A stretch of 58,146 nucleotides of DNA from Candidatus Thorarchaeota archaeon (GTDB taxonomy: Archaea > Asgardarchaeota > Thorarchaeia > Thorarchaeales > Thorarchaeaceae): assembly GCA_016839445.1 (NCBI GenBank), contig JAEOUG010000154.1, positions 1 to 58,146 on the forward strand. Direction: 5' to 3'. Each line of letters starts with the position of its first letter. Position 1 is the stretch's first letter. Position numbers and translations under genes: made by a program. Positions 1 to 14,412 of this stretch are shown here, one piece after another. The notes below the pieces were generated by a model. That model saw nothing but the letters and a program-made list of their open reading frames with translations. It was not told where the DNA came from and did no database searches.

Positions 1-1334
1 AGGCACCAGAACGAGTTGCAGTCGCTAGTGAATCCAAGGAGTCTGCCGTTGGGCATCTCGAGGACGCCTGCGTTTCCTCCAATGTCCACTGCGGTATGTG
101 ACTGAACGTGTTGATCGAACTGGCTGTATATCCAAGATCTATCACAGATATTCAGTGAACCCATTAGAGCCAGAATAGCTTCTCTGAAGTCTGTGGGTTC
201 GACATACCACTCCATCGAGTCTGTCTGCGAAGGTAGTTTGCCTTCGATTCGCTCAGGTTCAGGAAAGCCATGGACCAAGAGATCAATTGGGAGCTGAGCT
301 ATTGTTGCGCCATCAAACTTAGCGGTGCAGTAACCATCATCTGTGACGTGCCCAATGTCAGCATAGGTACAGTCGTTCTTTTCACAGATAACCATGATGC
401 GCTCCATGCTCTCTGCAGGAGTGATTGCCAGCATACGTTCCTGTGATTCTGACAGGATGATCTCCCAAGGCTCCAAATCGCCCTCTCTGAGCGGCACTCT
501 CTCAAGATGTATCTCTACACCGGTTCCTCCTGCGGCTGCAAGCTCCGCTGCGGCTACCGCTATGCCACCTCCGCCCAAGTCTTGGAGACCCGACAGAAGA
601 CCTTCTTCCACCATCTCAGCTAGTGTGTCGATCAGAATCTTCTTCGCTAGAGGATCTCCTATCTGGATGGCGCTCTGATTCGCTCTCTCCGACGTGGAGA
701 GTGACTTGGAGGCAAAGACCGCGCCAGCAATCCCATCGCGGCCTGTCGTCGAGCCAAACACCACCAGATGATGGCCTGGTGTGCTTGCTGCGCTCCTAAC
801 CACCTTTCCGGATGGCACAGATCCAATGCACACTACATTGACGAGACAGTTGCCATCATAGGAGCTATCGAATTCGACTTCTCCTCCAATCATAGGAATC
901 CCCACGCTGTTTCCGTAGTCGGAGATTCCTCGGGCCACGTTTCGAAGTAGATGTGCGTTTCGTTGCTTGCTGATATCACCGAACCTCAAGCAGTTCATTA
1001 GCCCAATAGTCCTGCATCCCTGTGAAACCACATCACGAATAATCCCACCCACACCTGTGGCTGCCCCATTGTACGGGTCGACGTTGCTGGGATGGTTGTG
1101 TGACTCCATGGCTACTCCGACCAAGTATCCGTCTCCGATGTCGAATAGCCCGGCCCCCTCCCCAATTCCGAGAACCACTCCCTCCCCATCGGTCTTGAGT
1201 AGATGGAACCACCGCTTACTGCTTTTGTAGCTGCAGTGCTCCGACCATAGCACTTCTAGCATCTTTGCTTCTGCCATGGTCATCTCCCTTCCGAGAGACC
1301 TCTTAGCAAGTTCACTTTCCTCTGATGTCAGCAT
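1..1334 (-). CDS. purL: Phosphoribosylformylglycinamidine synthase subunit PurL (5' part; runs off window start)
   Basis: Manual translation from ATG at 1334: MLTSEESELAKRSLGREMT...LWSEHCSYKSS...MESHNHPS...GAATGVGGIIRD; overlaps purQ stop. Confidence 0.93.
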   Translation of the reverse strand, partial: MLTSEESELAKRSLGREMTMAEAKMLEVLWSEHCSYKSSKRWFHLLKTDGEGVVLGIGEGAGLFDIGDGYLVGVAMESHNHPSNVDPYNGAATGVGGIIRDVVSQGCRTIGLMNCLRFGDISKQRNAHLLRNVARGISDYGNSVGIPMIGGEVEFDSSYDGNCLVNVVCIGSVPSGKVVRSAASTPGHHLVVFGSTTGRDGIAGAVFASKSLSTSERANQSAIQIGDPLAKKILIDTLAEMVEEGLLSGLQDLGGGGIAVAAAELAAAGGTGVEIHLERVPLREGDLEPWEIILSESQERMLAITPAESMERIMVICEKNDCTYADIGHVTDDGYCTAKFDGATIAQLPIDLLVHGFPEPERIEGKLPSQTDSMEWYVEPTDFREAILALMGSLNICDRSWIYSQFDQHVQSHTAVDIGGNAGVLEMPNGRLLGFTSDCNSFWC

Positions 1335-2026
1335 TTGGCGGCCCTCACGAAGTTCTCTAGAATCATCCGCCCGTCCGTTGACCCTAGTACCTGCCTGCTT
1401 GCGCGCTCTGGATGGGGCATCATTCCCATCACGTTTCCTTTCTGATTGATGACACTGGCGATGTTCTCAATAGATCCATTGGGGTTTGCTTCAGATGACA
1501 TGTTCCCCGCCAGGTCACAGTATCTCAAAGGAACTCTATTCTCGTCATTGAGCGCTATCAAGTCATCTTCTGAGCAGTAGTAGTTGCCTTCCGAATGGGC
1601 GATGGGTAGTCTGATGACCGCGTTCTCCATTCCCTCTGTGAATGCGGTCGGCATGTCAGACACCTTCAGATACACCCATCGGCACACAAACCTCGAAGAT
1701 AGATTCGGAAGAAGGACTCCTGGGAGAAGGCCCATCTCCGCCAGAATCTGGAATCCGTTTGATACACCAAGAATAGGCATCCCGTCCTCCGCCAAATCGC
1801 GAATGCCTTGAGTGATTGGCTCAACTGAAGCAATCGCTCCCGCCCGCAAATAGTCCCCGTAGGAGAATCCGCTAGGAATCACAATTGCACACGCATCCTT
1901 GAGGCCGGCTACTCCCTTTCTGCTTGGGAGAAGGAATGGCTTTGCACCCTTAACCTGGCTTAGCGCCGCGAGAACATCCTGATCATTTGTAGTGCCTGGG
2001 AATCTCACGACCGCGACTGACATCAC
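1328..2026 (-). CDS. purQ: FGAM synthase glutaminase subunit PurQ, with the catalytic Cys replaced by Ser
   Basis: VVRFPG, GFSYGDYLRAGA, GVSNGFQIL, PIAHSEG, NPNGS, GMMPHPER motifs. Confidence 0.92.
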   Translation of the reverse strand: MMSVAVVRFPGTTNDQDVLAALSQVKGAKPFLLPSRKGVAGLKDACAIVIPSGFSYGDYLRAGAIASVEPITQGIRDLAEDGMPILGVSNGFQILAEMGLLPGVLLPNLSSRFVCRWVYLKVSDMPTAFTEGMENAVIRLPIAHSEGNYYCSEDDLIALNDENRVPLRYCDLAGNMSSEANPNGSIENIASVINQKGNVMGMMPHPERASRQVLGSTDGRMILENFVRAAKC

Positions 2027-2988
2027 TAGGGCCTCACTTGGTGGCTCTCGGACACTGGATTCGACAGCAATTTGATGCTCATGAGGTTCAATTGCTTCAG
2101 CGTTTCTGAAGTCAACGGTCCATTCAGTGTTATCTTGAAGAGCTTGCCAACTCTCACTTCTGTGACATCCGCGAATCCCAGTCTGACTAGTGCCTTCCTA
2201 GTGATTTCTCCTGGAGGATTCCTGATGCCTGGCTTCGGCTCAACGATGACTTCAATTATTTCTCTTCTATCTGGGATCTCCTCTCCACGTGTCTTCATGA
2301 TTCTCTCGTTTAGTCTCCTGTATGAGTCAATCGGACTTCTAGGGGTTCTCGTGGACGTCTTCTTGCTCTTGCTGCCCATCTCGCTGTCCCAGACCGTCAT
2401 TGTGTCGTGGGAGATCTCGTCCGCGACGACGACTCTTTCACCATCAGCTATGCCAAACTCGAGCTTGAGGTCAGCAAGTTGAAGACTGGCCTGCGCAAGC
2501 AAAGCCGATAGATAGTAGTTGACCGAGGATGTTATGGAGAGCATCAAAGCTAGAGTCTGAGAATCCATGTGACCCAATAATACTGCAGACTCTCGTGTTA
2601 TCAGCAGATTTGGCTTCTCTCTGTCTTTCACGAAGAGCTCGATGACAGGCGACTCAAAGACCCGTCCTTTCTCAACTCCGTATCTCTCACAGAAAGAGCC
2701 TGCAGCCGCATTCCTGCAGACCACCATGATTGGAATGACATCCACTTTGCGGCAGAGAAGCTTCGGCCCTGACAGGGATTTGATGAGATGCGTGTCAATT
2801 CCCTTCCCCTCCAGGAACCCAAGCAAATGATACGAAAGGTCACAGGTCAGCTCTCCCTTCCCTGAAATCTCATCATTCTCATCCACGTTGTCACCCATAG
2901 CCGCATCAGTGAACTCGATGACAACTCTTTCCTCGCTCTCAGGATCCTGATATACCCGCTTTGACCTGCCTTCGCGAATGAGTCTCAT
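2026..2988 (-). CDS. purC-purS: SAICAR synthetase-like (PurC) domain fused to C-terminal PurS
   Basis: EGRSKRVY, CRNAAAGS, DLKLEFG, ADEIS (PurC); C-terminal VEPKPGIRNPPGEITRKAL...VRVGK...LLSNPV (PurS); ATG 2988 preceded by AAGGAGG. Confidence 0.85.
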   Translation of the reverse strand: MRLIREGRSKRVYQDPESEERVVIEFTDAAMGDNVDENDEISGKGELTCDLSYHLLGFLEGKGIDTHLIKSLSGPKLLCRKVDVIPIMVVCRNAAAGSFCERYGVEKGRVFESPVIELFVKDREKPNLLITRESAVLLGHMDSQTLALMLSITSSVNYYLSALLAQASLQLADLKLEFGIADGERVVVADEISHDTMTVWDSEMGSKSKKTSTRTPRSPIDSYRRLNERIMKTRGEEIPDRREIIEVIVEPKPGIRNPPGEITRKALVRLGFADVTEVRVGKLFKITLNGPLTSETLKQLNLMSIKLLSNPVSESHQVRP

Positions 2989-3248
2989 TCCCTGTCCTCC
3001 TTGAGCAAATGTAGAGGTCTCCTCCACGATGTCTTCCCTGGCGACCTTTCTCTTTCCACTGTATCAGGCAGTCCTTATGTCTCTGGAATCACTGTGTCCT
3101 CTCGGGGTGCGAGGAGCGTCTTCCTCCTAAGACAAGAGGGGCTACCCACTTGTATCAAAGGATAGCCAGAGAAGGCGCACTAATATGTTCTGGTGCTCCT
3201 TCAGAACGCCTCTGGCCTGTGATGATGGTCGTCTTTGAAGCTGCACTC

Positions 3249-3797: not shown

Positions 3798-3910
3798 GGT
3801 GTTGTTGGCAGAGAGTCATTGAATAAATACTTCGCATCGCGCAAGGATGACTGCGTCGAACCGCAACGACTATCTGCGTTTCAGACATGCTACATTTCAG
3901 AGGATGGCCT

Positions 3911-5038
3911 ATGGTTGAGGAGACTCCTGTTGATTTCGACGAAGGCGAGGATGTGCTTGAGTCATCGCTGACAAGGCGAAGGAAGGTTGAGCACATCGAG
4001 ATATGCCTGGAAGAAGACGTTCAGTGCCGTCGGACAACGATGCTTGAGGACATCGAATTCGTGCACAACGCACTTCCCGAGATTGACAAAGACAAGATAG
4101 ATCTCACTTCGAACTTCTTCGGTTTCCGAGCATCAGCACCTCTGCTGATTGCGGGAATGACGGGAGGTCATCCCCGGACTAAGGGCATAAACGAGAAGCT
4201 GGCTGCGGCAGCTGAGGAGCTGGGTCTGCCTATCGGTGTTGGAAGCCAGAGAGCGGCAATTGAGGACCCGTCTCTTGAGGACACGTTCAGAGTCGTGAGA
4301 GAGACCGCCCCATCGGTTCCTATTCTGGCAAACATAGGAGCCACGCACGTCGACTATGCTGAGGATGCAGTTTCGATGATCGAAGCAGATCTCCTTGCTG
4401 TTCATCTTAATCCTCTTCAAGAGGCCATTCAGCCAGAGGGCGACTGCAATTCTATCGGCGTTGTTGACACCATAGCTGCAATCGTCGACTCCGTTGATGT
4501 TCCTGTCATAGTGAAAGAGACTGGAGCAGGGATTTCAGACGATGTTGCTCGCCGACTCGCAGAAGTGGGCGTGGACGGAGTGGACGTTGGAGGTGTCGGA
4601 GGCACTAGCTGGGCAGCTGTTGAATACTACCGGGCACTGAAGGAAGACAATGACCTGAAATCGCAGTTCGGTCTGGAATACTGGGACTGGGGCATCCCCA
4701 CGGCTCTCAGCGTCATTCTCGTCTTGAACTCCACGGAGCTTGATGTCATTGCCACAGGAGGAATCAGAACTGGTCTCGATGTGGCAAAAGCTCTGAGTCT
4801 TGGAGCTGTTGCGGCAGGAGTTGCTCTGCCGCTGCTTCGTCCATCGGTTCTTGGATCCTCATTGGACGTTGTCATGGAGCTGGAGCGCTTCATAGAGGGC
4901 TTGAAGGTGGCGATGTATCTCACTGGCAGTTCAACTGTCGATGACATCGCCTCAAAACCACTAATCCTGAAGGGAGAGCTTGTTGAGTCACTGAGGTCTC
5001 TGGGAATCGACTATAAGCGCGTAGCATCAGGCACCTAG
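3911..5038 (+). CDS. fni: Type 2 (FMN-dependent) isopentenyl-diphosphate delta-isomerase
   Basis: RKVEHI, HNALPE, GMTGG, VGSQR, HLNPLQE, VKETG, GGTSW, GGIRTG motifs. Confidence 0.95.
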   Translation: MVEETPVDFDEGEDVLESSLTRRRKVEHIEICLEEDVQCRRTTMLEDIEFVHNALPEIDKDKIDLTSNFFGFRASAPLLIAGMTGGHPRTKGINEKLAAAAEELGLPIGVGSQRAAIEDPSLEDTFRVVRETAPSVPILANIGATHVDYAEDAVSMIEADLLAVHLNPLQEAIQPEGDCNSIGVVDTIAAIVDSVDVPVIVKETGAGISDDVARRLAEVGVDGVDVGGVGGTSWAAVEYYRALKEDNDLKSQFGLEYWDWGIPTALSVILVLNSTELDVIATGGIRTGLDVAKALSLGAVAAGVALPLLRPSVLGSSLDVVMELERFIEGLKVAMYLTGSSTVDDIASKPLILKGELVESLRSLGIDYKRVASGT

Positions 5039-6441
5039 ACTACTCCGATTCTCTGGAGGTACTTCGAGCGACGTCGTATTCCGTTCAGCATCTGGACGGC
5101 TTCTTCAATCGTATCGCCGACAGGAATGCCGTTTATCTCGAACCCTCGTATGATGACTTCGTATTTCTCCAGATCTGGCACATATGAGACGACCGTCTTC
5201 TGGTGAGTCTTTGCCACGTTAGCCACGCGTGCTCCTATCTGAAGAGAGATGCCTGGAGCATATGGAAGCAGAAGCAGCAATGCTGCATCTATGTTCTCAA
5301 ACTCAAGCATCTTGTCAAGAACACGCTCATAGTCGACATCAGAGGCGCTGCCGGTCAGGTCGCACGGATTTCGGAACGAGGCAATCCCCTGATATGCAGG
5401 GGTCATCACCTCTCGCATGGTTTCCTGTTGCTCTCTGCTGAACCCGGGGAATACCAATCCGTAATGAGATGCCTCATCGCTCGCTATGACTCCATGGCCT
5501 CCACTTACAGTCAGTGTACCCACCCTAGGGCCCTTCATGGGTTTCGGCTTGAAGGAGAAGGCTTTCGCGTAGGCCATTACCTCATCCTCATCCACTGCTT
5601 GGATCACCCCGAACTGCCTGAATGCCGCCTCTGCCACAACTTGGTTACCTGCGAGAGAAGATGTGTGACTCTGTGTGGCTCGATGTCCGGCTTCGGACTC
5701 CCCACCCTTGAGGACAACGACTGGTTTCTTCGGCGCTATCTCCTTGCACGTTTCGACGAACCGTCGTCCCTCTCCTTCTCCAAACCCTTCGATGTATGCC
5801 AGAATCACGTCTACCTTCCTCTCGGAACCGAAGTGTCTGATGAAGTCATGAACCTTGGTCTGCGCGGCATTGCCTATCGATATGGCGGCTGCAATCCCTA
5901 CATCTCTCTGGGCGAACTCCTCGAGTCGCTCTATCAGCCAGCCGCCACTCTGCGAGATTATGGCCACATTACCTCTCCTAGGTCTGGCCACTCTCTCAGA
6001 GGGCAGGAAGAACGTGTCAAGGACATCTGGCACGAAGACACCAATGCAGTTGGGGCCCACCATTGTTATCCCGAATTCCTCGGCTATCTCCACGATTTCG
6101 CTCTGGAGGCTTGCGCCAGTGGCTCCCACCTCGCTGAACCCTCCTGAAACGACAACTACAGAGTGAATCCCCTTCTCTCCACATTCTCTTAGAACACCGG
6201 GGACGTACTTCGCAGGTACGGAGATGACAGCGAGCTCTATGCCATCCGGCGCCTCTGTGATGGACTTGCAGACGGGGACTCCTTCAACAACCCCTCCCTT
6301 GGGGTTTATCGGATAGGTTGGTAAAGCGTTCTCAAACCTGAGTTTCCTGAAGATCACGTTCCCCGGGCTAAACGGATTAGAAGTCGACACTCCCACAACC
6401 GCAGTGGCACTGGGATTAAGCATAGTCTTTAGGCCTGTCAT
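5035..6441 (-). CDS. ADP-forming acyl-CoA synthetase alpha-like subunit (CoA-binding + ligase domains)
   Basis: YPINPK, SGGFSE, GPNCIG, ISQSG, SHT phospho-His motif, NPCDLTG. Confidence 0.88.
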   Translation of the reverse strand: MTGLKTMLNPSATAVVGVSTSNPFSPGNVIFRKLRFENALPTYPINPKGGVVEGVPVCKSITEAPDGIELAVISVPAKYVPGVLRECGEKGIHSVVVVSGGFSEVGATGASLQSEIVEIAEEFGITMVGPNCIGVFVPDVLDTFFLPSERVARPRRGNVAIISQSGGWLIERLEEFAQRDVGIAAAISIGNAAQTKVHDFIRHFGSERKVDVILAYIEGFGEGEGRRFVETCKEIAPKKPVVVLKGGESEAGHRATQSHTSSLAGNQVVAEAAFRQFGVIQAVDEDEVMAYAKAFSFKPKPMKGPRVGTLTVSGGHGVIASDEASHYGLVFPGFSREQQETMREVMTPAYQGIASFRNPCDLTGSASDVDYERVLDKMLEFENIDAALLLLLPYAPGISLQIGARVANVAKTHQKTVVSYVPDLEKYEVIIRGFEINGIPVGDTIEEAVQMLNGIRRRSKYLQRIGVV

Positions 6442-6518
6442 GTCTCCGCCTCTGGCTTTGGCGTTCCTGCTCACAGCCCCTTATATGACCTGCGAAGGTG
6501 AATCTGCTTCGTCAGACA

Positions 6519-7574
6519 TCAGGGCTTCATCTGGGCTAGTATCTCTATCATTCGAGGTTCCGCCAGAATCGCGTGCTGGAGCTTGCAGAGCAACTTGGTG
6601 ATTTCTGCGTAGATGACCTGTCTTGGCTCGTCACTGGCCTTCTCTGCACTCTCGAGCGACTCGGCACACTGCTGGTTCAGCCTCTTGATAATTCTCTTCT
6701 CGAGTTCTGGTCCACCCCATCCAAAGCCATCAAAGGCAGTCTGCGCTTCGAGTATCTTCTCTTTGACACTCAGCTTCTCTTCCTTGAGCACTTTCTCGAG
6801 ACCCTGATAGTACTTTGCCACGGCACGCTCAATGCGTTCCATCTCCGACCCAGTAAGGTACGTTTCTTGCTGGCGTGTCTTCATCAGGTCCTGCAATAGA
6901 CGAGCCCCTGGGGCCTCCGTGAGAAGCCCCTTTGCTGTGGCCATAATCGTACGTGCAGGCAGCTCCATCACATCACCGATATAGGGTGAATCTGAGCGGT
7001 ACTTGTGAATCTCTCTGATAGTCTCGAGCCAGAAGGTCGGCATGAGCACGTGGCAGCGCTTTGAATACTGCTGGATGAGCCGCTGTGTCTGGCCAATAAG
7101 GCCGAACTGGTCATCTTCGACATCTACCTTCCTGAAGGCTTCAAGAGGTCTCGTAGGTTCGCCACCTACTAGAGGAATGATTTTCTCTCCTTCTGCGGAC
7201 TCTGAATCTCCGGGTGTCTGAGAAGGAATGTGCCCACCATCCAGGATCGAAAGTATCTCCTGCGCCGGATGGGTCTCAGCTCTCTTGGCCTTTTCAGAGA
7301 GTTTTGGCAGCAGAGACTCAATCTGTGAGAGCCTCTTCACAATCAGAGTCATGATGTTCTGAGTGGACGGAGGAATACCCTTCATGGCAGTAGCTTCTTC
7401 CATCCACTTACGAGTTCGAAGAAGCCCCTGGGTAAGAGAGTCTACACGGTCTGGGTCTACGCTCTCTTCGACCTGTGAACTCAGCAAGAAGTGAAGTAGA
7501 GTTGAGTTCAGCGTGACCATCAACAGAAGCCTGTCGATTAGGTCCTCGAATTGGAAGGAGGGAGCGTCAGACAT
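6519..7574 (-). CDS. Hypothetical alpha-helical protein, third gene of the tubulin-like operon
   Basis: 351 aa ORF starting 18 bp after the tubulin-like stop, GAGGTG SD-like motif. Confidence 0.8.
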   Translation of the reverse strand: MSDAPSFQFEDLIDRLLLMVTLNSTLLHFLLSSQVEESVDPDRVDSLTQGLLRTRKWMEEATAMKGIPPSTQNIMTLIVKRLSQIESLLPKLSEKAKRAETHPAQEILSILDGGHIPSQTPGDSESAEGEKIIPLVGGEPTRPLEAFRKVDVEDDQFGLIGQTQRLIQQYSKRCHVLMPTFWLETIREIHKYRSDSPYIGDVMELPARTIMATAKGLLTEAPGARLLQDLMKTRQQETYLTGSEMERIERAVAKYYQGLEKVLKEEKLSVKEKILEAQTAFDGFGWGGPELEKRIIKRLNQQCAESLESAEKASDEPRQVIYAEITKLLCKLQHAILAEPRMIEILAQMKP

Positions 7575-7592: not shown

Positions 7593-8975
7593 TTACTCCA
7601 TGGTCTCCCCAGGTGTCATGTAGTAGCTGAACAGCTCTCTGAAGTCGTTGATGGCGTCCACGAGCTCCTTTCGGGAGGTTCCCTTAGAGCGCATGAACCA
7701 CCCCTGTTTCAGGGGCGATGCCCCACTGTGCAGATTCACGAGCTGTGTTGCTTCATTGATGATCTGTACAAGCTCGGGTATCTTCGGCAGTCCAAGAAGG
7801 AGTAGCAGGTCCGTAGACTCCTCTCCAGCGTGATACTGCACGTAGCATGGTGTTATCGCCGCACCAGGGGCAATGAACTTGTCAAGTGCTTCTTTCAGAT
7901 GCATGCCATACTCCGCTTTGGCTACGCTTCTCGGCCCGGACATCACGTAGTAGACGCTCTCCGCGTTGGGTTCCTCTCCGACATCGGCGTAGGAACACTC
8001 CCTGACTGCGTAGTCAATCATCTGCCTGAGCTGCTTGGGCATGCTTGCCTGATCCTGAATGAGACCGACATCTGCGTATAGCGCGGGAACGACCACTGGG
8101 TCAAGCTTGCGAGCATAGTCTGCTAGGTCGGTTGTTGGGAAGACATCCTTGTGGCTCTCCCACACACCCGGTGAGAGCATTGCCTCAACTACATCGAGGG
8201 CTAGAGGGTTCACCAGTTCTACAAACGCCTGCTCAGTCCTCGACTCACCGTCTGCGGTTTCATCTATTGTGGACGGGACATTCTTCTGGATTGAGTCGAT
8301 GTCTGCGATATCCACATTCAGTTCCTGCTGGAGATAGTCGACGCTATCTGATCTTCTCCACTGAAGAATACGCTTCAGCATCGTCCTATTGCTTAGTAGT
8401 ATTGTAAGGTCTGCACCCCTCTCCTGAAGCTGTGCTCTCAGTAACTTTGAGACAGCCCAGATTGAGTTCAAAGCCTCACTGGACTGCCCCTCAAAGGGCA
8501 GTACGCCTATTACGTAGACAAAGATCCGTCGGCCCTCTTCTTCCTGGAATCTCTGCTTGAGTAGGTCAATCAATGCAGGCGTTCCGCCGCAACCTGTGCC
8601 GCCCCCAAGGCTAGTGAATATGCAGAAGCCTGACACTCCTTCAAAGCCCAGGTTGCTCAATTGGTCGAAGATGATGTCCTTTGACTCCATGATGGCGTTA
8701 TAGCCGTCCATGAAGCGCCCGCCGACACCAATCTCGCTTGCACCATAGAGGAGGGTGTGTTCCTTCGGTATCTCATACTTCTGGCGTACCTTGGTGAGGT
8801 CTGCTCTGTCTGTATTAATGAGCAGGTAACCTCTGACTCTTGACGGAAGTCTCTTGTCGTGGCTTCTCTTCAGGTAGGATCCTACGATGTTTGAACCACA
8901 CTCGCCAATACCTATGGCGAAGACCTCAGCCGCCTTGGTTGTATCGTCGACTTCTACTGGATTTCCTCTTAGCAT
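7593..8975 (-). CDS. Tubulin/FtsZ/CetZ-superfamily GTPase (divergent)
   Basis: T1 GIGECGSNI, T2 LINTD, T3 GVGG, T4 signature SLGGGTGCG, T5 VLPF, T7-like TTDLADY. Confidence 0.92.
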   Translation of the reverse strand: MLRGNPVEVDDTTKAAEVFAIGIGECGSNIVGSYLKRSHDKRLPSRVRGYLLINTDRADLTKVRQKYEIPKEHTLLYGASEIGVGGRFMDGYNAIMESKDIIFDQLSNLGFEGVSGFCIFTSLGGGTGCGGTPALIDLLKQRFQEEEGRRIFVYVIGVLPFEGQSSEALNSIWAVSKLLRAQLQERGADLTILLSNRTMLKRILQWRRSDSVDYLQQELNVDIADIDSIQKNVPSTIDETADGESRTEQAFVELVNPLALDVVEAMLSPGVWESHKDVFPTTDLADYARKLDPVVVPALYADVGLIQDQASMPKQLRQMIDYAVRECSYADVGEEPNAESVYYVMSGPRSVAKAEYGMHLKEALDKFIAPGAAITPCYVQYHAGEESTDLLLLLGLPKIPELVQIINEATQLVNLHSGASPLKQGWFMRSKGTSRKELVDAINDFRELFSYYMTPGETME

Positions 8976-8987
8976 TGGTAGTATCTC

Positions 8988-11681
8988 CTAAGCTTTCCCT
9001 CTGGTATCAACCATTGTCTGGGCCAGTTCTCTGATAGCCCAGACCAAGTAGGAACTGATGTCCTCTCTGCTGTACGTTTCCTTGATTTGTCTGATCTTGT
9101 CATCGATGAACTTGTCGCGTTCTTCGACCCGGGATGAAGGACTGAACCCGGTCATGTACATCCTGAGCGACTTGTGCCAGTCGTCCATTGCTACAGCCTT
9201 GTCAAGCCACTTGCCCCTCATATCTTCCAGCTCGTGGAAGCAGGATATGGCCTTGGGCAGCGACTCTGCCTTCTTCAGGTCGGCTGCAAGTGTGTTCATC
9301 CGCTTGACATCAAAGACGATCTTGCTGAAGTCATCAGAGTGTCTCTCGATGACGCGTTCTATGGTAGAGAAGTACTGACTCTTCTTCTTCAGCTGCGCGC
9401 TGTAATCCTGTGCGCTCTTGTCCGCAATACCCTTGATGACATCTAGCATTTCTTCCTGGATACTTGCCAACGTGAGGCATACATCCAGCGCTTCGTTCAC
9501 ATGCGGGGTGTCCGTCTGCAGCTTCATGGGTACTTGGTCAAGCAGCACCTTGAGCCTCTCTACGAACTCCGACATCCCTTGATCCTCAAAGAGCTGCACA
9601 GCGTCCTTGATCTGCTCATAGGCTTCGTCAACACGGTCTCTGATCTTCTTGTGGACCTTCTTGGAGGTCGTGAGGCTCTCGAGCTTGTCGAATGCATCCG
9701 CAGCCTCCTCCAGTTCGCTGGGAGGATTCTTCTGCAAGTCATGGAGCATGTCGAGTTCTTTCTCCACCTTCACGCCAATGCTCTTGGCCTTCTCAAGAGA
9801 TGTGACCAGTGAGTCCACCTCGACCTTGAGCTGTTCGATGACCTTGGAAGAGATCTTCTTCTCGTAAATCTCTATCATCTTCCTGGCAATTGCGGGTAGA
9901 CTGAACACATTCTCCGCTGCAACTCCCACACTGTTCAGCTCGCTTATGGCCTCCTGTACGTCTGGAGGTATCTCGACGCCTGCGCCCATAAGCTTGGCAG
10001 CCGCGAGCCGAATCTTCACACCCAGGCGATAACGCAGGTTCTCAAGGGAGTCCTTGGCCTTCGCCAGAATGGACTCCTTTATCGATCGCATCTCTGACTT
10101 AATCTCAGAGAAGTCGTCCATCTTCTGAATGCGCTCTGAACCCTCGTCTAGGCTCACTACAATAGGCATGAAGATCTCGGCATACGCCGGTTTGATTGTC
10201 TGCAGGTCCATTACAATGGCGTCTATTTCCTGCTGACATGCATCTCTGAATGTGGCTACACCGCTCTCAACGGCTTCACGAAGTGTCTTCAGAGACTCGA
10301 GAAGGAAGACCACTCCTCCCTCCATCTCTTCCACCTTCGGCGCTTTCTTGCTCAGTTGTGCGTGATCCAATACCCTGTCTGCTGAGGTGGCCAGCTCATT
10401 GAACCTTGTGATGTAATTGCGGATGGAATCTTTGATTACGCGACGGTGATTGTCATCCATTGCCTTGGCCTTGAGGTAGATGCGGACCATCTCGTCCACG
10501 TCAGCTTCCTTTAGGCTCTTCTTCGACTCTGTAATGAACTTCCGGACCGCAGAAACGTCCTTTATGCCAGCGTCATCTGCGAAATCGAGTGCCTTCTCAA
10601 CATCATCTAGCAGCTCAAAGACTTGCTCTCTGAGGGCGATCTTGACCTGTCCTTCCCATTCGACCATTAGCTGGTAGCTGGACAGGAGTCCTGCAATGCC
10701 CTCTCCCTCTACAGAAACCGTTGGGGGGGTTGGAATCACGTCGGAGGTAGTCGGAATCCCTCCGTCAACGATCTTCTGTGTCACCTCGTGCTTGATGTTG
10801 ATAATCTTGTCACGAAGCATGTTGGCCATTTTGACCTTGGCGGAGTGGAGTTGATTCTCTAGGCTGACCAGCTCGGTCAGCGTCTGAGCCTTCGAGCCAT
10901 CTCTCGCCAGTATACGAAGCTGCTGTGTGAACTCCATCGGGAGTTCAAGACCAAGCCTTGAGGAGGTCTCCACCGAAGCCTGCAATGATTCGGTGTCGCT
11001 CACGAGCGAGTTGCTGAGCATCCGACTGACTTCGTCCTTCCTGCCATCGAGATACTCCCTATCCGTCATCAGCTTGTCATTCAAGATTGTGAGGTCTTTC
11101 AGGGACATGCCCGCCACTTCTTCTGTGGCCACAGTTGTAGCCACCTCACTCTTGTCGATTGTAATGTGCCTCTCGTACGTATCTACTGTGGCTTTGTTCT
11201 CATCAAGGACTCCCTTTACCTCTCTGGCGAAGTCCTCGTAGACTACCAGATATTGCTTCGAAAACGCTTTCGCGAAGTCATATAGCTTTGAGAAGTCTTG
11301 AAGGTCTCCTGCACCAATCCCTGGGAAGTTGATAGCGGCAATGGCCTTCGTTTCTGCAGGCTTCAGTTCCTGTATCTTAGGAACAATGGCCAGAGCATCC
11401 TTGTGCTCTTTTCTGAAGTGCTCGGCGAAGTCGCGAGTGGCCCTCATGAAGTCATCTTCGAGTTCACTTGAGGTCTTATCGACCTCCGTCTGAACCTTCC
11501 TCTTTTTCATGAAACCTGCTGATGTCAGGTCGTTCTCAAGCTTGCTTAGATTAGCAAAGATATCGTAAAGGTGACGTACTTGACGATTGGCTTGCTCCTC
11601 CATCGTAGGATTGACTGATGTGAGAATACCCTTGAGTTCAGCAAACCTATCCAGTTCGCGTCGCCATCCATGGCTGTCCAT
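8988..11681 (-). CDS. Large alpha-helical/coiled-coil protein (about 897 aa), first gene of the tubulin-like operon
   Basis: Long ORF rich in E/K/L/A with heptad-like periodicity; ATG 11681 preceded by GGAGGT; 12 bp gap to tubulin-like gene. Confidence 0.85.
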   Translation of the reverse strand: MDSHGWRRELDRFAELKGILTSVNPTMEEQANRQVRHLYDIFANLSKLENDLTSAGFMKKRKVQTEVDKTSSELEDDFMRATRDFAEHFRKEHKDALAIVPKIQELKPAETKAIAAINFPGIGAGDLQDFSKLYDFAKAFSKQYLVVYEDFAREVKGVLDENKATVDTYERHITIDKSEVATTVATEEVAGMSLKDLTILNDKLMTDREYLDGRKDEVSRMLSNSLVSDTESLQASVETSSRLGLELPMEFTQQLRILARDGSKAQTLTELVSLENQLHSAKVKMANMLRDKIINIKHEVTQKIVDGGIPTTSDVIPTPPTVSVEGEGIAGLLSSYQLMVEWEGQVKIALREQVFELLDDVEKALDFADDAGIKDVSAVRKFITESKKSLKEADVDEMVRIYLKAKAMDDNHRRVIKDSIRNYITRFNELATSADRVLDHAQLSKKAPKVEEMEGGVVFLLESLKTLREAVESGVATFRDACQQEIDAIVMDLQTIKPAYAEIFMPIVVSLDEGSERIQKMDDFSEIKSEMRSIKESILAKAKDSLENLRYRLGVKIRLAAAKLMGAGVEIPPDVQEAISELNSVGVAAENVFSLPAIARKMIEIYEKKISSKVIEQLKVEVDSLVTSLEKAKSIGVKVEKELDMLHDLQKNPPSELEEAADAFDKLESLTTSKKVHKKIRDRVDEAYEQIKDAVQLFEDQGMSEFVERLKVLLDQVPMKLQTDTPHVNEALDVCLTLASIQEEMLDVIKGIADKSAQDYSAQLKKKSQYFSTIERVIERHSDDFSKIVFDVKRMNTLAADLKKAESLPKAISCFHELEDMRGKWLDKAVAMDDWHKSLRMYMTGFSPSSRVEERDKFIDDKIRQIKETYSREDISSYLVWAIRELAQTMVDTRGKA

Positions 11682-11893
11682 AAGACCTACCTCCGTCTGG
11701 TGTGGCTGTGAATTCCTAGTATGTCTTAAGTTCTTTTTCTGTCGGTCCTCCCTTTTCAAAGAATGTGCTACGTATTGAACCATCTCGACGGGCTCTGACA
11801 TTCTGGAGGCGAAATCTTGTGCAGAGGGAAACTGCCTTAAGGACTCCTCCTGCCACTAACCCAACTAATGCCTCCCCCTGAGGCGATAGACCG

Positions 11894-13786
11894 ATGGAAG
11901 GTAGTAATGATTCTGCTCACGTCAGCTACGAGACCGTCACCAAGCTCGATGTCGATGCCATTGACCTAGCCTACGATGATCGGTTCCTCTATGCGGCCTG
12001 TAGAGACCAGAGGGTCCGGGTCTGGTCAAAGGAGAGCTGGCAGCTCGTGGCTGAGCTCGGAGAGACTGCAACCGAGCCGCTCGCAGTCGATGTAGACGAA
12101 ACGCAGGTCTACGCAACTTGTGAGAAGAGAGTCTACGTGTGGAACAAGGAATCATGGGGCATGATGGGATGGTTTGAGCTGTCCTATCAAGCCGTGGCGG
12201 CTACTCTTTACGGTGACTACTTCTTCGTCGGAGCAAGAGATGGCCGGCTTGTGTCGATTCAAAAAGACCCACCCCACGACACTAACAGCTGGCAATTGCA
12301 TAAGTCTGACATCACGAGTCTCTGGTCTGATGACAGGATAATCTGTACGAGTACGCGTAAGGAGGAGCCAAGGGTGTGGCTCAAGGCAAAGGATGCTGCC
12401 CCCTCCGAGCTGGCCCGTTTGGACATGAAGGGCAAGAGCGGGGTTGTGTCGGGGAACAGCGAGTTCGTTCTGGTCGGTACGGGATCGGGAGAGATTGAGG
12501 TATATGATAGAGTTGAATACAAACTTGTGAAGACATTGGAGCCAGAGAAATCACAGCCGGTTCACTCACTCTGGGTTAGCAATTACTACCTCGTCTCAGC
12601 GTCAGCTAATGGCACCCTTGTGCTCTGGGATCTTAAGCTGGGAGAGGAGGTGGGGGCCGTTGCTCTTGAAGGGCAGAGAGTCCAGTGGGTCAACGCTGAC
12701 CACGACCTTCTCTACGTGGCAACCAGCGGAGGTATCTTTGTCATTCGGCTGGTTGCAGGAGGGAGGCCGCTGGATGTCTGCTCAGAGGGGCCTGTTCTGT
12801 GGAAAGACAGCCTGCTGAAGACCTCTCCCTATGATGTTCTGGAAAGCGCAATCCAACTCGAGAAGCGGGGCGATGAATGCTATCAAGATGGCGTCTTTCA
12901 TGAAGCCGTCAAGGAGTATGAGAACGCTTTGCAGCTGCTCATCGACAACACACATGCTCTTCTTGAAGTTCCAGAGGAACGGCAGATGCTGACCGATGAA
13001 CTCAATGATAAGCTCGGAAAGGCGCTTCTGCGGTCAAAGATGGAAGAGATCAGCGTTCTGAGTCACGACATCCGGCAGTTGTCAGAGGAGCTCGAAGTCA
13101 AGAAGCGGACCGACATGGAGCCTGAAGAGGTCGAGAATCTCTGGGCATCGGCAGGCAGAGCTATCAAGGAGAGCAGGGTTCTTTCAGAAGCCCAGGCCAG
13201 TGACATGCTCAGCTACCAGCTAACCAACCTTGTTGACTCTCTAGACCAGGAACTTCAACGAGCCATGGACAGATACACAGACTTCCGCGAGACCATCAAT
13301 CAGGCCTTGGCCCTCACGCGACGTATCTCCAATGAATGGAGATGGATGGAAAGGAAGCGGACAACGCTCAATGAGCGGCGGGACTATCTTCGGGGCGCAA
13401 TGGACAAACTGGCCGAGGCCCTGAAAGACTCGGAAGAAGACAGCGAAGTCCACAAGGTTCTCTCAGGAGCTCTCGAGGAGTACAGGCGGCTCCACTCGCA
13501 AATCGAGAGAATAGTGAAATCTCGTGATGATGATTCTGCTGGCACAACACTGGAGAAGGAAGAAGCCAGAGAAGTCATTGAAGGGCTGCTCAATGTCCTG
13601 CCGAAGAGGATAGCCGCATGCAGGGCTATCAAAGATGAAAGACAGAGAGAACTCGAACTCGGCCGGATTCTCTCGGCGCTGGATGAAGCAATGGAGACTG
13701 CATCATCGTTCAAGATGTCGAAAGAGAAGGACGCCATTGAGAAGTTCATGAATGATTTGAAGCCCGAGCCCGGCCAGGGCGCCTAG
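11894..13786 (+). CDS. WD40-like beta-propeller + MIT/TPR-like helices + coiled coil
   Basis: Repeats such as LYAACRDQRVRVWS, HKSDITSLWSD, LVSASANGTLVLWDL; then AIQLEKRGDECYQDGVFHEAVKEYENALQL and a long helical tail. Confidence 0.8.
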   Translation: MEGSNDSAHVSYETVTKLDVDAIDLAYDDRFLYAACRDQRVRVWSKESWQLVAELGETATEPLAVDVDETQVYATCEKRVYVWNKESWGMMGWFELSYQAVAATLYGDYFFVGARDGRLVSIQKDPPHDTNSWQLHKSDITSLWSDDRIICTSTRKEEPRVWLKAKDAAPSELARLDMKGKSGVVSGNSEFVLVGTGSGEIEVYDRVEYKLVKTLEPEKSQPVHSLWVSNYYLVSASANGTLVLWDLKLGEEVGAVALEGQRVQWVNADHDLLYVATSGGIFVIRLVAGGRPLDVCSEGPVLWKDSLLKTSPYDVLESAIQLEKRGDECYQDGVFHEAVKEYENALQLLIDNTHALLEVPEERQMLTDELNDKLGKALLRSKMEEISVLSHDIRQLSEELEVKKRTDMEPEEVENLWASAGRAIKESRVLSEAQASDMLSYQLTNLVDSLDQELQRAMDRYTDFRETINQALALTRRISNEWRWMERKRTTLNERRDYLRGAMDKLAEALKDSEEDSEVHKVLSGALEEYRRLHSQIERIVKSRDDDSAGTTLEKEEAREVIEGLLNVLPKRIAACRAIKDERQRELELGRILSALDEAMETASSFKMSKEKDAIEKFMNDLKPEPGQGA

Positions 13787-14412
13787 CTGGCCACAATTCC
13801 GTCTAGAAAGGGGTAGTCTTCCTCGAGTTCTTCGTCTCTCACGAGGTCCAGCCACTCGTCTGCCAGGATTGAGAGTGAAGGATCTAGAGACACCGCGTAT
13901 TCAGCTGCCTCGATGGCTGAACCATAGTCATCAAAGACTAGGTGGCACACTGCAAGATTGTACCACGAGATTGCAGAATTGGGATTCAGATCAAGCGACT
14001 TCTGAATCGCGTCAATAGCTTCCTCCCACTCCTCCTCGGCAATCAGAGCCGTAGCTAGCAGTTCCCACTCTCTAATCTTCTTCGGATGGATTCTCAGGCC
14101 TTCACGAAGTGCGCCAATACCCTCCGCATTCTCGTTGAGCAGGAGATGAAGGTAACCCTTGTCCGTCCATAGTGTGGAGGAGCTTGGATCGATTCTGACC
14201 AGATTGTCTAGGGCCTCGATTGCCATTCTTCCATTTCCGAGTTCAAGATTGCAGGACACGATTCCTTCCCAAGCTCTCACGCTCTTTGGGTCGAAGCCAA
14301 GACCTCTTCTGTACTCGCGGATGGCCTCCAGATAGCGCTTCTTCTTCTGGAGGTCTCTAGCCTGCTCTAGGCAAGTATCCGCTCCATCACAAGCGCTCCG
14401 AGGTGCTCTCAT
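13783..14412 (-). CDS. Tetratricopeptide repeat protein
   Basis: About 4-5 TPR units (AIREYRRGLGFDP, AIDAIQKSLDLNPNSAISWYNLA). Confidence 0.88.
   Translation of the reverse strand: MRAPRSACDGADTCLEQARDLQKKKRYLEAIREYRRGLGFDPKSVRAWEGIVSCNLELGNGRMAIEALDNLVRIDPSSSTLWTDKGYLHLLLNENAEGIGALREGLRIHPKKIREWELLATALIAEEEWEEAIDAIQKSLDLNPNSAISWYNLAVCHLVFDDYGSAIEAAEYAVSLDPSLSILADEWLDLVRDEELEEDYPFLDGIVAS

Follow-up and report, generated by a model that had tools for sequence, protein, structure and literature searches.

Described relatives and the locus

Asg.Tub is an Asgardarchaeota paralogue of the tubulin superfamily that branches, with an unstable placement, between CetZ and the tubulins (Santana-Molina et al. 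2023; PMC9871819). In the portions of that paper cited here, an HMM (hidden Markov model) for the Asg.Tub C-terminus matched no other family, the neighboring genes encode mostly coiled-coil proteins of unknown function in a context unrelated to that of CetZ, and Asg.Tub was judged to be nearer to CetZ than to tubulin, its intermediate position being treated cautiously. The name 'CetZ-related Asgard archaeal clade' appears in the cited portion of a preprint (bioRxiv 10.64898/2026.02.15.705738). In the literature on Asgard CetZ, tubulin and FtsZ proteins, no functional or structural study of the clade was found. Here we analyze a 460-aa protein encoded on contig JAEOUG010000154.1 of a Candidatus Thorarchaeota archaeon (assembly GCA_016839445.1), the whole stretch of 58,146 nucleotides being referred to as the window. 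The gene is located as follows:

7593..8975, minus strand: gene for a tubulin-superfamily protein of 460 aa (open reading frame, ORF, stop codon included; PF00091)

The protein is a tubulin-superfamily GTPase distinct from bona fide tubulins as well as from canonical CetZ and FtsZ. It carries the G-G-G-T-G-x-G signature of the tubulin/FtsZ superfamily, and the only Pfam family matched was PF00091 (Tubulin/FtsZ GTPase; residues 17-201, 1.2e-19, 71.8 bits against a cut-off of 33). The domain of bona fide tubulins, PF03953 (Tubulin_C), had no match in the source genome (2.9 Mb, 190 contigs), which holds three superfamily genes, two of FtsZ type and the one described here. The family to which the protein belongs is probably the published Asg.Tub, or 'CetZ-related Asgard clade', with which it was matched by description, tree position and gene context. 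Like Asg.Tub as described in the cited portions, it occurs almost only in Asgard metagenome-assembled genomes (MAGs), takes a tree position between CetZ and tubulin, has helical neighbors and shows an orphan C-terminus in HMM searches. Since the tree and the gene context reproduce the picture given there, the identification is very probable.

We read the family, with a probability of about 0.6, as a deep Asgard-specific branch on the CetZ/tubulin side of the superfamily, which would form a filament driven by GTP, with an outer C-terminal ridge for docking the products of the two flanking genes, here called N1 and N2. This reading starts from what is established at the locus: the protein belongs to the family, is conserved and keeps its motifs intact, its C-terminus, with its predicted helices, matches that of tubulin in sequence, and its gene lies in an operon.

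The predicted C-terminal helices match tubulin H11'-H12 in sequence

A sequence-only reading of the window had likened the end of the protein to the H11-H12 segment of tubulin. The two strings on which it relied, IPELVQIINEATQLVNLH and KQGWFMRSKGTSRKELVDAINDFRELFSYY, were located as residues 398-415 and 423-452, and the span in question, 7593..7810, encodes residues 389-460 and the stop codon. Both strings lie within the following segment:

7617..7784, minus strand: C-terminal three-helix segment, residues 398-453 (H11-, H11'- and H12-type; from model, conservation and hhalign)

An AlphaFold2 model based on an alignment of 35 family sequences (A1) had a predicted local distance difference test score (pLDDT) of 80.6 and a predicted template modeling score (pTM) of 0.83. 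In this model, helices at residues 400-416, 421-431 and 435-452 follow the last strand (388-395), and the block has a pLDDT of 86-92. The three helices are conserved like the core (majority fraction 0.63-0.77 against 0.67-0.78), with 0.18 for the last seven residues. When A1 was compared at full length with an alignment of 12 bona fide Asgard tubulins taken from Tubulin_C matches (A2), hhalign gave a probability of 96.9 and an E-value of 2e-10 over 379 columns running to the C-terminal end, with W426-F, G432, L438, A441, D444, L448-F and Y452 paired with tubulin W-Y, G, L/F, A, N, L and Y.

The C-terminus was also compared on its own, against 11 bona fide tubulins (443 columns). Residues 396-456 aligned to columns 391-420 of 443, the homologous position, with E 2e-4; for residues 418-456 the E-value was 8e-5, and in the reciprocal search the tubulin C-terminus profile matched family residues 424-453 with E 2e-4. 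The observed score was 30.8, whereas the best of 100 column shuffles scored 22.5 and the reversed profile 13.6; a chance likeness to tubulin was rejected on this basis. The same C-terminal residues were paired with tubulin H11'-H12 in a MAFFT L-INS-i alignment made independently from 46 sequences. Given the hhalign match, the shuffle control, the reciprocal search, the MAFFT pairing and the conservation, the likeness goes beyond chance, and the resemblance first proposed from the sequence holds.

The groups compared by C-terminus-only hhalign were tubulins, canonical CetZ, 3zid-like CetZ, Halo.Tub-like proteins, a Korarchaeota group, FtsZ and the P0126 group. The Korarchaeota group was matched at its own C-terminus with E 1e-3. 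For 3zid-like CetZ (H11 part only), canonical CetZ and FtsZ the values were 0.11, 0.18 and 0.22, and the Halo.Tub-like (0.43) and P0126 (0.53) groups gave no match in this comparison. In the MAFFT alignment, a G-T-S-K/R turn before the last helix is common to the family, the Odin-type tubulins and the Korarchaeota group. Full-length hhalign alignments also covered the C-terminal helices collinearly, with query residues 17-445 aligned to 4-366 of 369 in 3zid-like CetZ and 17-446 to 3-385 of 403 in the Korarchaeota group. H11/H12-type helices are thus not confined to tubulin but shared more widely on the CetZ/tubulin branch. For CetZ, the 3zid-like sequences suggest a single long helix at this end. 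Solved CetZ structures reportedly carry a tubulin-like H11 helix.

Phylogenetic placement

Trees were built with FastTree on 97 rows and with IQ-TREE (LG+C20+F+G4 by posterior mean site frequency, PMSF) on 46 rows and 395 columns; the 51 rows outside the 46-row tree were extra members of represented groups and long-branch singletons, among them P0143, P0176, P0219 and P0220. Groups were anchored by their best match in the PDB (P0181, alpha-tubulin, 7e-70; P0138, CetZ1, 8e-10; P0126, CetZ2, 5e-7). Canonical CetZ-like labels were given by N-terminal likeness to PDB CetZ alignments, with further names taken from source records, and the label Halo.Tub-like (P0138, P0141, P0165 and others) by likeness to the description in the cited portions of PMC9871819 only. 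The anchor P0181 (438 aa) is itself a remote match from outside the window and, by sequence, a bona fide tubulin. Its cluster is named from Microbulbifer, a gammaproteobacterium, and it is possibly a tubulin from a bacterium other than Prosthecobacter.

Both programs agree on the placement of the family. In the IQ-TREE tree, the eight family rows (support 99/98) join P0126 and P0145 (100/99), and the resulting ten rows join the seven Halo.Tub-like rows weakly (85/50). Together with seven tubulins they form a clade supported by 96/92, outside which lie the canonical CetZ-like clade (13 rows, 95/97), 3zid-like CetZ and the Korarchaeota group. The tubulin clade itself (seven rows, 100/100, on a stem of 2.33 changes per column) excludes the family, as does the canonical CetZ clade. 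In the approximately unbiased (AU) test, the best tree that has the tubulins outside all CetZ-like groups, the family included, still stands (log-likelihood difference 15.4, p 0.0896).

The family had been proposed, from sequence, to represent a lineage intermediate between CetZ/FtsZ and true tubulins, an idea against which nesting within ordinary CetZ or FtsZ clades would have spoken. No such nesting was found, and the idea stands insofar as the family joins the tubulins and the Halo.Tub-like group outside canonical CetZ and FtsZ. It is weakened by the CetZ-like GTPase core, by the lack of a Tubulin_C match and by the AU result.

In its strongest form, this idea would make the family a true stem-tubulin, i.e. 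the nearest extant sister group of the tubulins, with the H11'-H12 ridge as a shared derived trait. We regard this as unlikely. It is favored by the 96/92 clade, on which FastTree agrees, by the C-terminus-only profile, which matched best with tubulins among the groups compared, and by the G-T-S-K/R turn before H12 shared with the Odin-type tubulins; the cited portions of PMC9871819 also describe the intermediate position as stable across methods. Within the clade, however, the family pairs with the Halo.Tub-like group and not with the tubulins, the AU test retains the tree with the tubulins outside, and the tubulin stem is so long that long-branch attraction is plausible. The stem-tubulin interpretation is further opposed by a GTPase domain nearer to CetZ, by the lack of the Tubulin_C domain and of the tubulin indels, by the genomes with true tubulins (eight of 400), none of which carries the family, and by the placement of the clade nearer to CetZ in the cited portions of PMC9871819.

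GTPase core, middle domain and predicted fold

The following elements were assigned in the N-terminal and middle parts of the protein:

8355..8933, minus strand: N-terminal GTPase domain, residues 15-207 (Pfam match, hhalign and motif blocks)
8889..8912, minus strand: T1 loop (motif block)
8583..8612, minus strand: T4 signature GGGTGCGG (motif block; invariant across the family)
8255..8350, minus strand: family-specific H6-H7 insert, residues 209-240 (pLDDT 42-65, conservation 0.45)
8106..8138, minus strand: T7 loop and start of H8, residues 280-290 (PTTDLADYARK; D283 and D286 invariant)

The loop strings quoted in the sequence-only reading, T1 GECGSNI and T4 SLGGGTGCG, were found at residues 24-30 and 122-130, and the T1, T3, T4, T5, T6 and T7 residues are invariant across the 35 sequences of A1. 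As that reading had suggested, T1 is nearer to tubulin and CetZ than to FtsZ, with E in the family, Q or E in CetZ and tubulin, and G in FtsZ. T5 is of the P-F type seen in 3zid-like rows and not of the P-S type, and T6 has the S-N that is common to the Halo.Tub-like and P0126 groups. T7, T-T-D-L-A-D-Y, resembles both FtsZ N-L-D-F-A-D and 3zid-like T-D-L-G-D; tubulins have N-x-D-L-x-E/K and canonical CetZ rows D-A-S-E. In the 46-sequence alignment, the family has a gap where tubulins carry the stretch N-L-V-P-x-P-R-x-H-F after H8, and the tubulin-type T7/H8 that, together with this stretch, characterizes a bona fide tubulin is lacking as well.

In phmmer searches of the PDB, the best two matches were CetZ1 from Haloferax volcanii (4b46_A, 6e-10) and CetZ from M. 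thermophila (3zid_A, 1.9e-7), followed by BtubB (3e-4), CetZ2 (4b45, 3.4e-4), FtsZ (2e-3) and alpha-tubulin (3e-3). All these matches are confined to the N-terminal domain of the 460-aa protein, and by sequence the closest solved relatives of this domain are thus CetZ proteins. With hhalign, the GTPase domain was closest to the Halo.Tub-like group (8.2e-27), canonical CetZ (1.7e-26) and the P0126 group (5e-26), and farther from the Korarchaeota group (5.5e-22), 3zid-like CetZ (6.7e-16), tubulins (8.4e-14) and FtsZ (3.4e-9).

The order of elements in the AlphaFold2 model fits the superfamily fold S1-S10, with the H6-H7 insert and the C-terminal helices as two additions. The insert is about 40 residues long (about residues 208-245), poorly predicted and family-specific, without a counterpart in the CetZ, tubulin or FtsZ rows. 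Only CetZ and tubulins were present among the 50 PDB matches listed by Foldseek. The template modeling (TM) score of 3zid_A was 0.58 by query and 0.72 by target (E 2.2e-18), and that of OdinTubulin 7evh 0.62 by query and 0.67 by target (E 2.6e-18); by target, CetZ1 reached 0.80 and CetZ2 0.77, and gamma-tubulin, beta-tubulin and BtubA 0.60-0.66. These matches place the fold on the CetZ/tubulin side, with a core at least as near to CetZ as to tubulin.

An FtsZ paralogue was rejected, as the protein scored 35.7 bits against the TIGR00065 cut-off of 295.2 and no FtsZ was found among the 50 fold matches listed; the assignment to the tubulin superfamily as distinct from FtsZ, made from the sequence, is thereby upheld. 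In the NCBIfam scan only weak FtsZ matches were obtained, NCBIfam having no CetZ model. From the profile comparisons, the GTPase core is CetZ-like, the middle domain looks to be the family's own, and likeness to tubulin is greatest at the extreme C-terminus.

Alternatively, the family could be an ordinary divergent CetZ, an Asgard orthologue with a role in cell shape, in which the C-terminal likeness would be a convergence of amphipathic helices and the tree position an artefact. CetZ1 and CetZ are the best PDB sequence matches, the TM score by target is highest for CetZ, H11 opens with P-K/R-I-x-E-L as in canonical CetZ-like rows, and the source of one member calls it 'Tubulin-like protein CetZ'. 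Yet the family is not part of the canonical CetZ clade (95/97), its middle domain has no CetZ profile match (E 0.1), its C-terminus alone gave E 0.18 with canonical CetZ against 2e-4 with tubulins, and its gene context, as described in PMC9871819 so far as cited, bears no relation to the CetZ one. We consider this explanation quite improbable.

Distribution in Asgard archaea

A word-indexed search retrieved 159 relatives from Asgard MAGs labeled Thor-, Loki-, Heimdall-, Hod-, Hermod- and Asgardarchaeia, the full-length members being 48-97% identical; one relative carries the source name 'Tubulin-like protein CetZ'. A HMMER scan of 1.84 billion cluster representatives gave 103 matches at E<=1e-3. 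Among full-length proteins, only P0078, P0121 (44% identity), P0126 (32%) and P0134 (28%) matched beyond the N-terminal domain; the others matched over approximately residues 17-200, and the remaining matches past that region are short fragments of the family. The cluster of P0121 is mostly named Baldrarchaeia, with three members labeled non-Asgard or Odinarchaeota.

In a scan of 400 Asgard genomes, the family was found in 126 at E<=1e-30. Nearly all genomes of some family codes have it (75/85, 21/22, 15/19, 5/5 and 4/4), and in others it was not found (0/135, 0/31, 0/14 and 0/4). True tubulins, recognized by Tubulin_C, were present in eight of the 400 genomes. A second paralogue, about 50% identical to the 460-aa protein, was observed under one family code (L021, 7992..9317, minus strand; L028, 7998..9332, plus strand). 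The sequencing runs listed as carriers were 19 of DNA, from six studies, and none of RNA, which has no bearing on expression.

A conserved three-gene module

The gene is flanked on its own strand by two genes for helical proteins:

8988..11801, minus strand: N2, 937-aa all-alpha protein with internal repeats, upstream, 12-nt gap
6519..7574, minus strand: N1, 351-aa helical protein, downstream, 18-nt gap

Gene context was compared at 16 loci, drawn from nine family codes within the phylum. A homologue of N2 (873-1185 aa) lies directly upstream in all 16 and a homologue of N1 (293-380 aa) directly downstream in 14, often overlapping or only a few bases away. The same-strand order N2, tubulin-like gene, N1 is found in 14 of the 16 loci, the two exceptions being second paralogues of one family code that have N2 only; in these loci the large upstream protein is kept and an opposite-strand gene for a protein of about 740 aa takes the place of N1. 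The remaining neighbors are common to close relatives only and differ between lineages.

The model of N2 has 29 helices (pLDDT 83.6, pTM 0.39), and its internal repeats give off-diagonal probabilities of 92-96 when the profile is aligned to itself with hhalign. No Pfam family scored above the cut-off in N2, and across the 16 members none was found in more than two. Its profile matched only helical-bundle and apolipoprotein-type proteins in the PDB (E about 3e-3) and its own cluster in the Atlas, and Foldseek gave no match at E<=1e-3 (TM <=0.16). N1, conserved in the C-terminal half of its alignment (A3), matched no Pfam family; its best PDB profile hits were unrelated proteins (E 0.028), and the Atlas gave no usable match. 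A complex prediction for the tubulin-like protein with N1, based on A1 and A3, returned a score of 0.00 and a mark of 0.32, which favors neither outcome. A helical ORF of 443-470 aa beside Odin-type tubulin genes (L006-L011) matched the N2 profile weakly (probability 73, E 3e-5, 86 columns), a score that helical composition may inflate.

The strict linkage to partner genes would also fit a GTPase that forms no filament at all and acts as a regulatory or assembly subunit only in complex with N1 and N2, and the family-specific, low-pLDDT insert of 40 residues between H6 and H7 points the same way. Set against this are the polymerization-linked motifs, T7 included, all of which are invariant across the family. 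To our knowledge, every characterized superfamily member with an intact T7 polymerizes. We therefore hold a non-filament role to be very improbable.

Divergent from the operon lies a gene for a 630-aa WD40 propeller protein (11894..13786, plus strand), followed by one for a 209-aa TPR protein (13783..14412, minus strand); these two genes adjoin the operon only in close relatives (L026 and L027, the TPR gene also in L030). On the other side of the operon, the window contains genes for an FMN-dependent dehydrogenase-fold protein (3887..5038, plus strand) and a CoA-binding/succinyl-CoA-ligase-like protein (5035..6474, minus strand). The purine synthesis genes at 1328..3027 (minus strand) encode a fusion of SAICAR synthetase with PurS as well as a glutamine amidotransferase. 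All of these are ordinary metabolic neighbors.

Proposed mechanism and significance

What is inferred is that the protein polymerizes and hydrolyzes GTP, that its helices lie on the surface, that it binds the partners, and what role it has in the cell; the favored reading of a deep Asgard-specific branch joins these points as follows. GTP would be bound through the intact T1-T6 loops, and subunits would polymerize head to tail, the invariant T7 residues D283 and D286 completing the active site of the next subunit, a catalytic role suggested by the superfamily. Dynamic protofilaments would result. The C-terminal three-helix segment, putatively homologous to tubulin H11-H11'-H12 and to the CetZ-like C-terminal helices, would lie on the outer filament face as a docking ridge. 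The likeliest clients of this ridge are the repeat-helical N2 (870-1190 aa) and N1 (300-380 aa), which together with the filament may constitute a three-part cytoskeletal module. As the operon suggests, these partners would bind the filament, plausibly at the ridge, as cross-linker, scaffold or anchor. Candidate cellular roles are in shape, protrusions or membrane remodeling.

Several observations weigh against this reading. The C-terminal match is short, 29-30 columns, with hhalign probabilities of 46-61%. In hhalign, the only groups matched by residues 208-395, the middle domain, are the Halo.Tub-like (4e-7) and P0126 (3.3e-7) ones, with no match to the CetZ, tubulin or FtsZ profiles. The equivalent of the M-loop, between residues 303 and 312 in the model, is only about eight residues long, which makes microtubule-type lateral contacts doubtful, and the protein lacks a long acidic tail.

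The family is common in several Asgard classes, being found in 126 of 400 genomes against eight with true tubulins, and stands near the divide between CetZ and tubulin. If a filament forms, the helices face outward and the partners bind there, the family would date the origin of the microtubule design of a ridge with associated proteins. A bolder version, which we hold to be rather improbable, is that the family is a pre-tubulin stem relative in which a ridge homologous to the one that binds motors and microtubule-associated proteins (MAPs) on microtubules already docks N2 and N1. Were this true, an archaeal 'filament plus MAPs' module would predate microtubules and persist in Thor-, Hod/Heimdall-, Baldr- and related Asgard lineages.

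Comparison with known systems

Compared with the bona fide tubulins (eukaryotic alpha, beta and gamma, OdinTubulin, AtubA/B and BtubA/B), the family has the same overall fold (Foldseek E about 1e-17, TM by query 0.60-0.62) and, in its model, three C-terminal helices after the last strand. Its pattern W-aromatic ... G-x-S-K/R-x-x-L-x-x-A-x-D/N-x-F/L-x-x-L-x-x-x-Y aligns with H11'-H12. Unlike tubulins, it has no Tubulin_C domain, no N-L-V-P-x-P-R-x-H-F stretch, no acidic tail and no heterodimer gene pair, its M-loop is short, and it matches alpha-tubulin in the PDB with E 3e-3, where a real prokaryotic tubulin, P0181, reaches 7e-70.

CetZ (CetZ1 4b46, CetZ2 4b45 and 3zid) provides the best PDB sequence matches and the top fold matches of the family, which shares with it a T1 of the Q/E-x-G type, a 3zid-like P-F in T5 and an H11 that opens with P-K/R-I-x-E-L. 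The family differs in the insert of about 40 residues between H6 and H7, in a C in T4, in S-N for D-N in T6 and, from canonical CetZ, in a D at the T7 catalytic position where the CetZ rows have E. It also lies outside the canonical clade, has a middle domain that is unrelated by profile, and occurs in Asgard hosts with another gene context.

The Halo.Tub-like group is the sister of the family in the tree (85/50) and resembles it in the middle domain (4e-7), in the S/A-N of T6 and in an H12-like helix ending in Y. It differs by a T1 of S-G-E-G-G-G and by a C-terminus without an hhalign match to the family. The cited portions of PMC10936438 connect a Haloquadratum CetZ-like protein, not part of the main CetZ branch, with a Vps4-type system termed 'Halo_adaptin'; should this protein belong to the Halo.Tub-like group, the link hints at a role in membrane sorting for that group.

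The clade as such is very probably the one already published as Asg.Tub. The profile match of its C-terminus to tubulin H11'-H12 and the fixed three-gene order, which are not among the published descriptions cited here, may bear on the origin of the eukaryotic cytoskeleton, and the module, kept across nine Asgard family codes, may be new.

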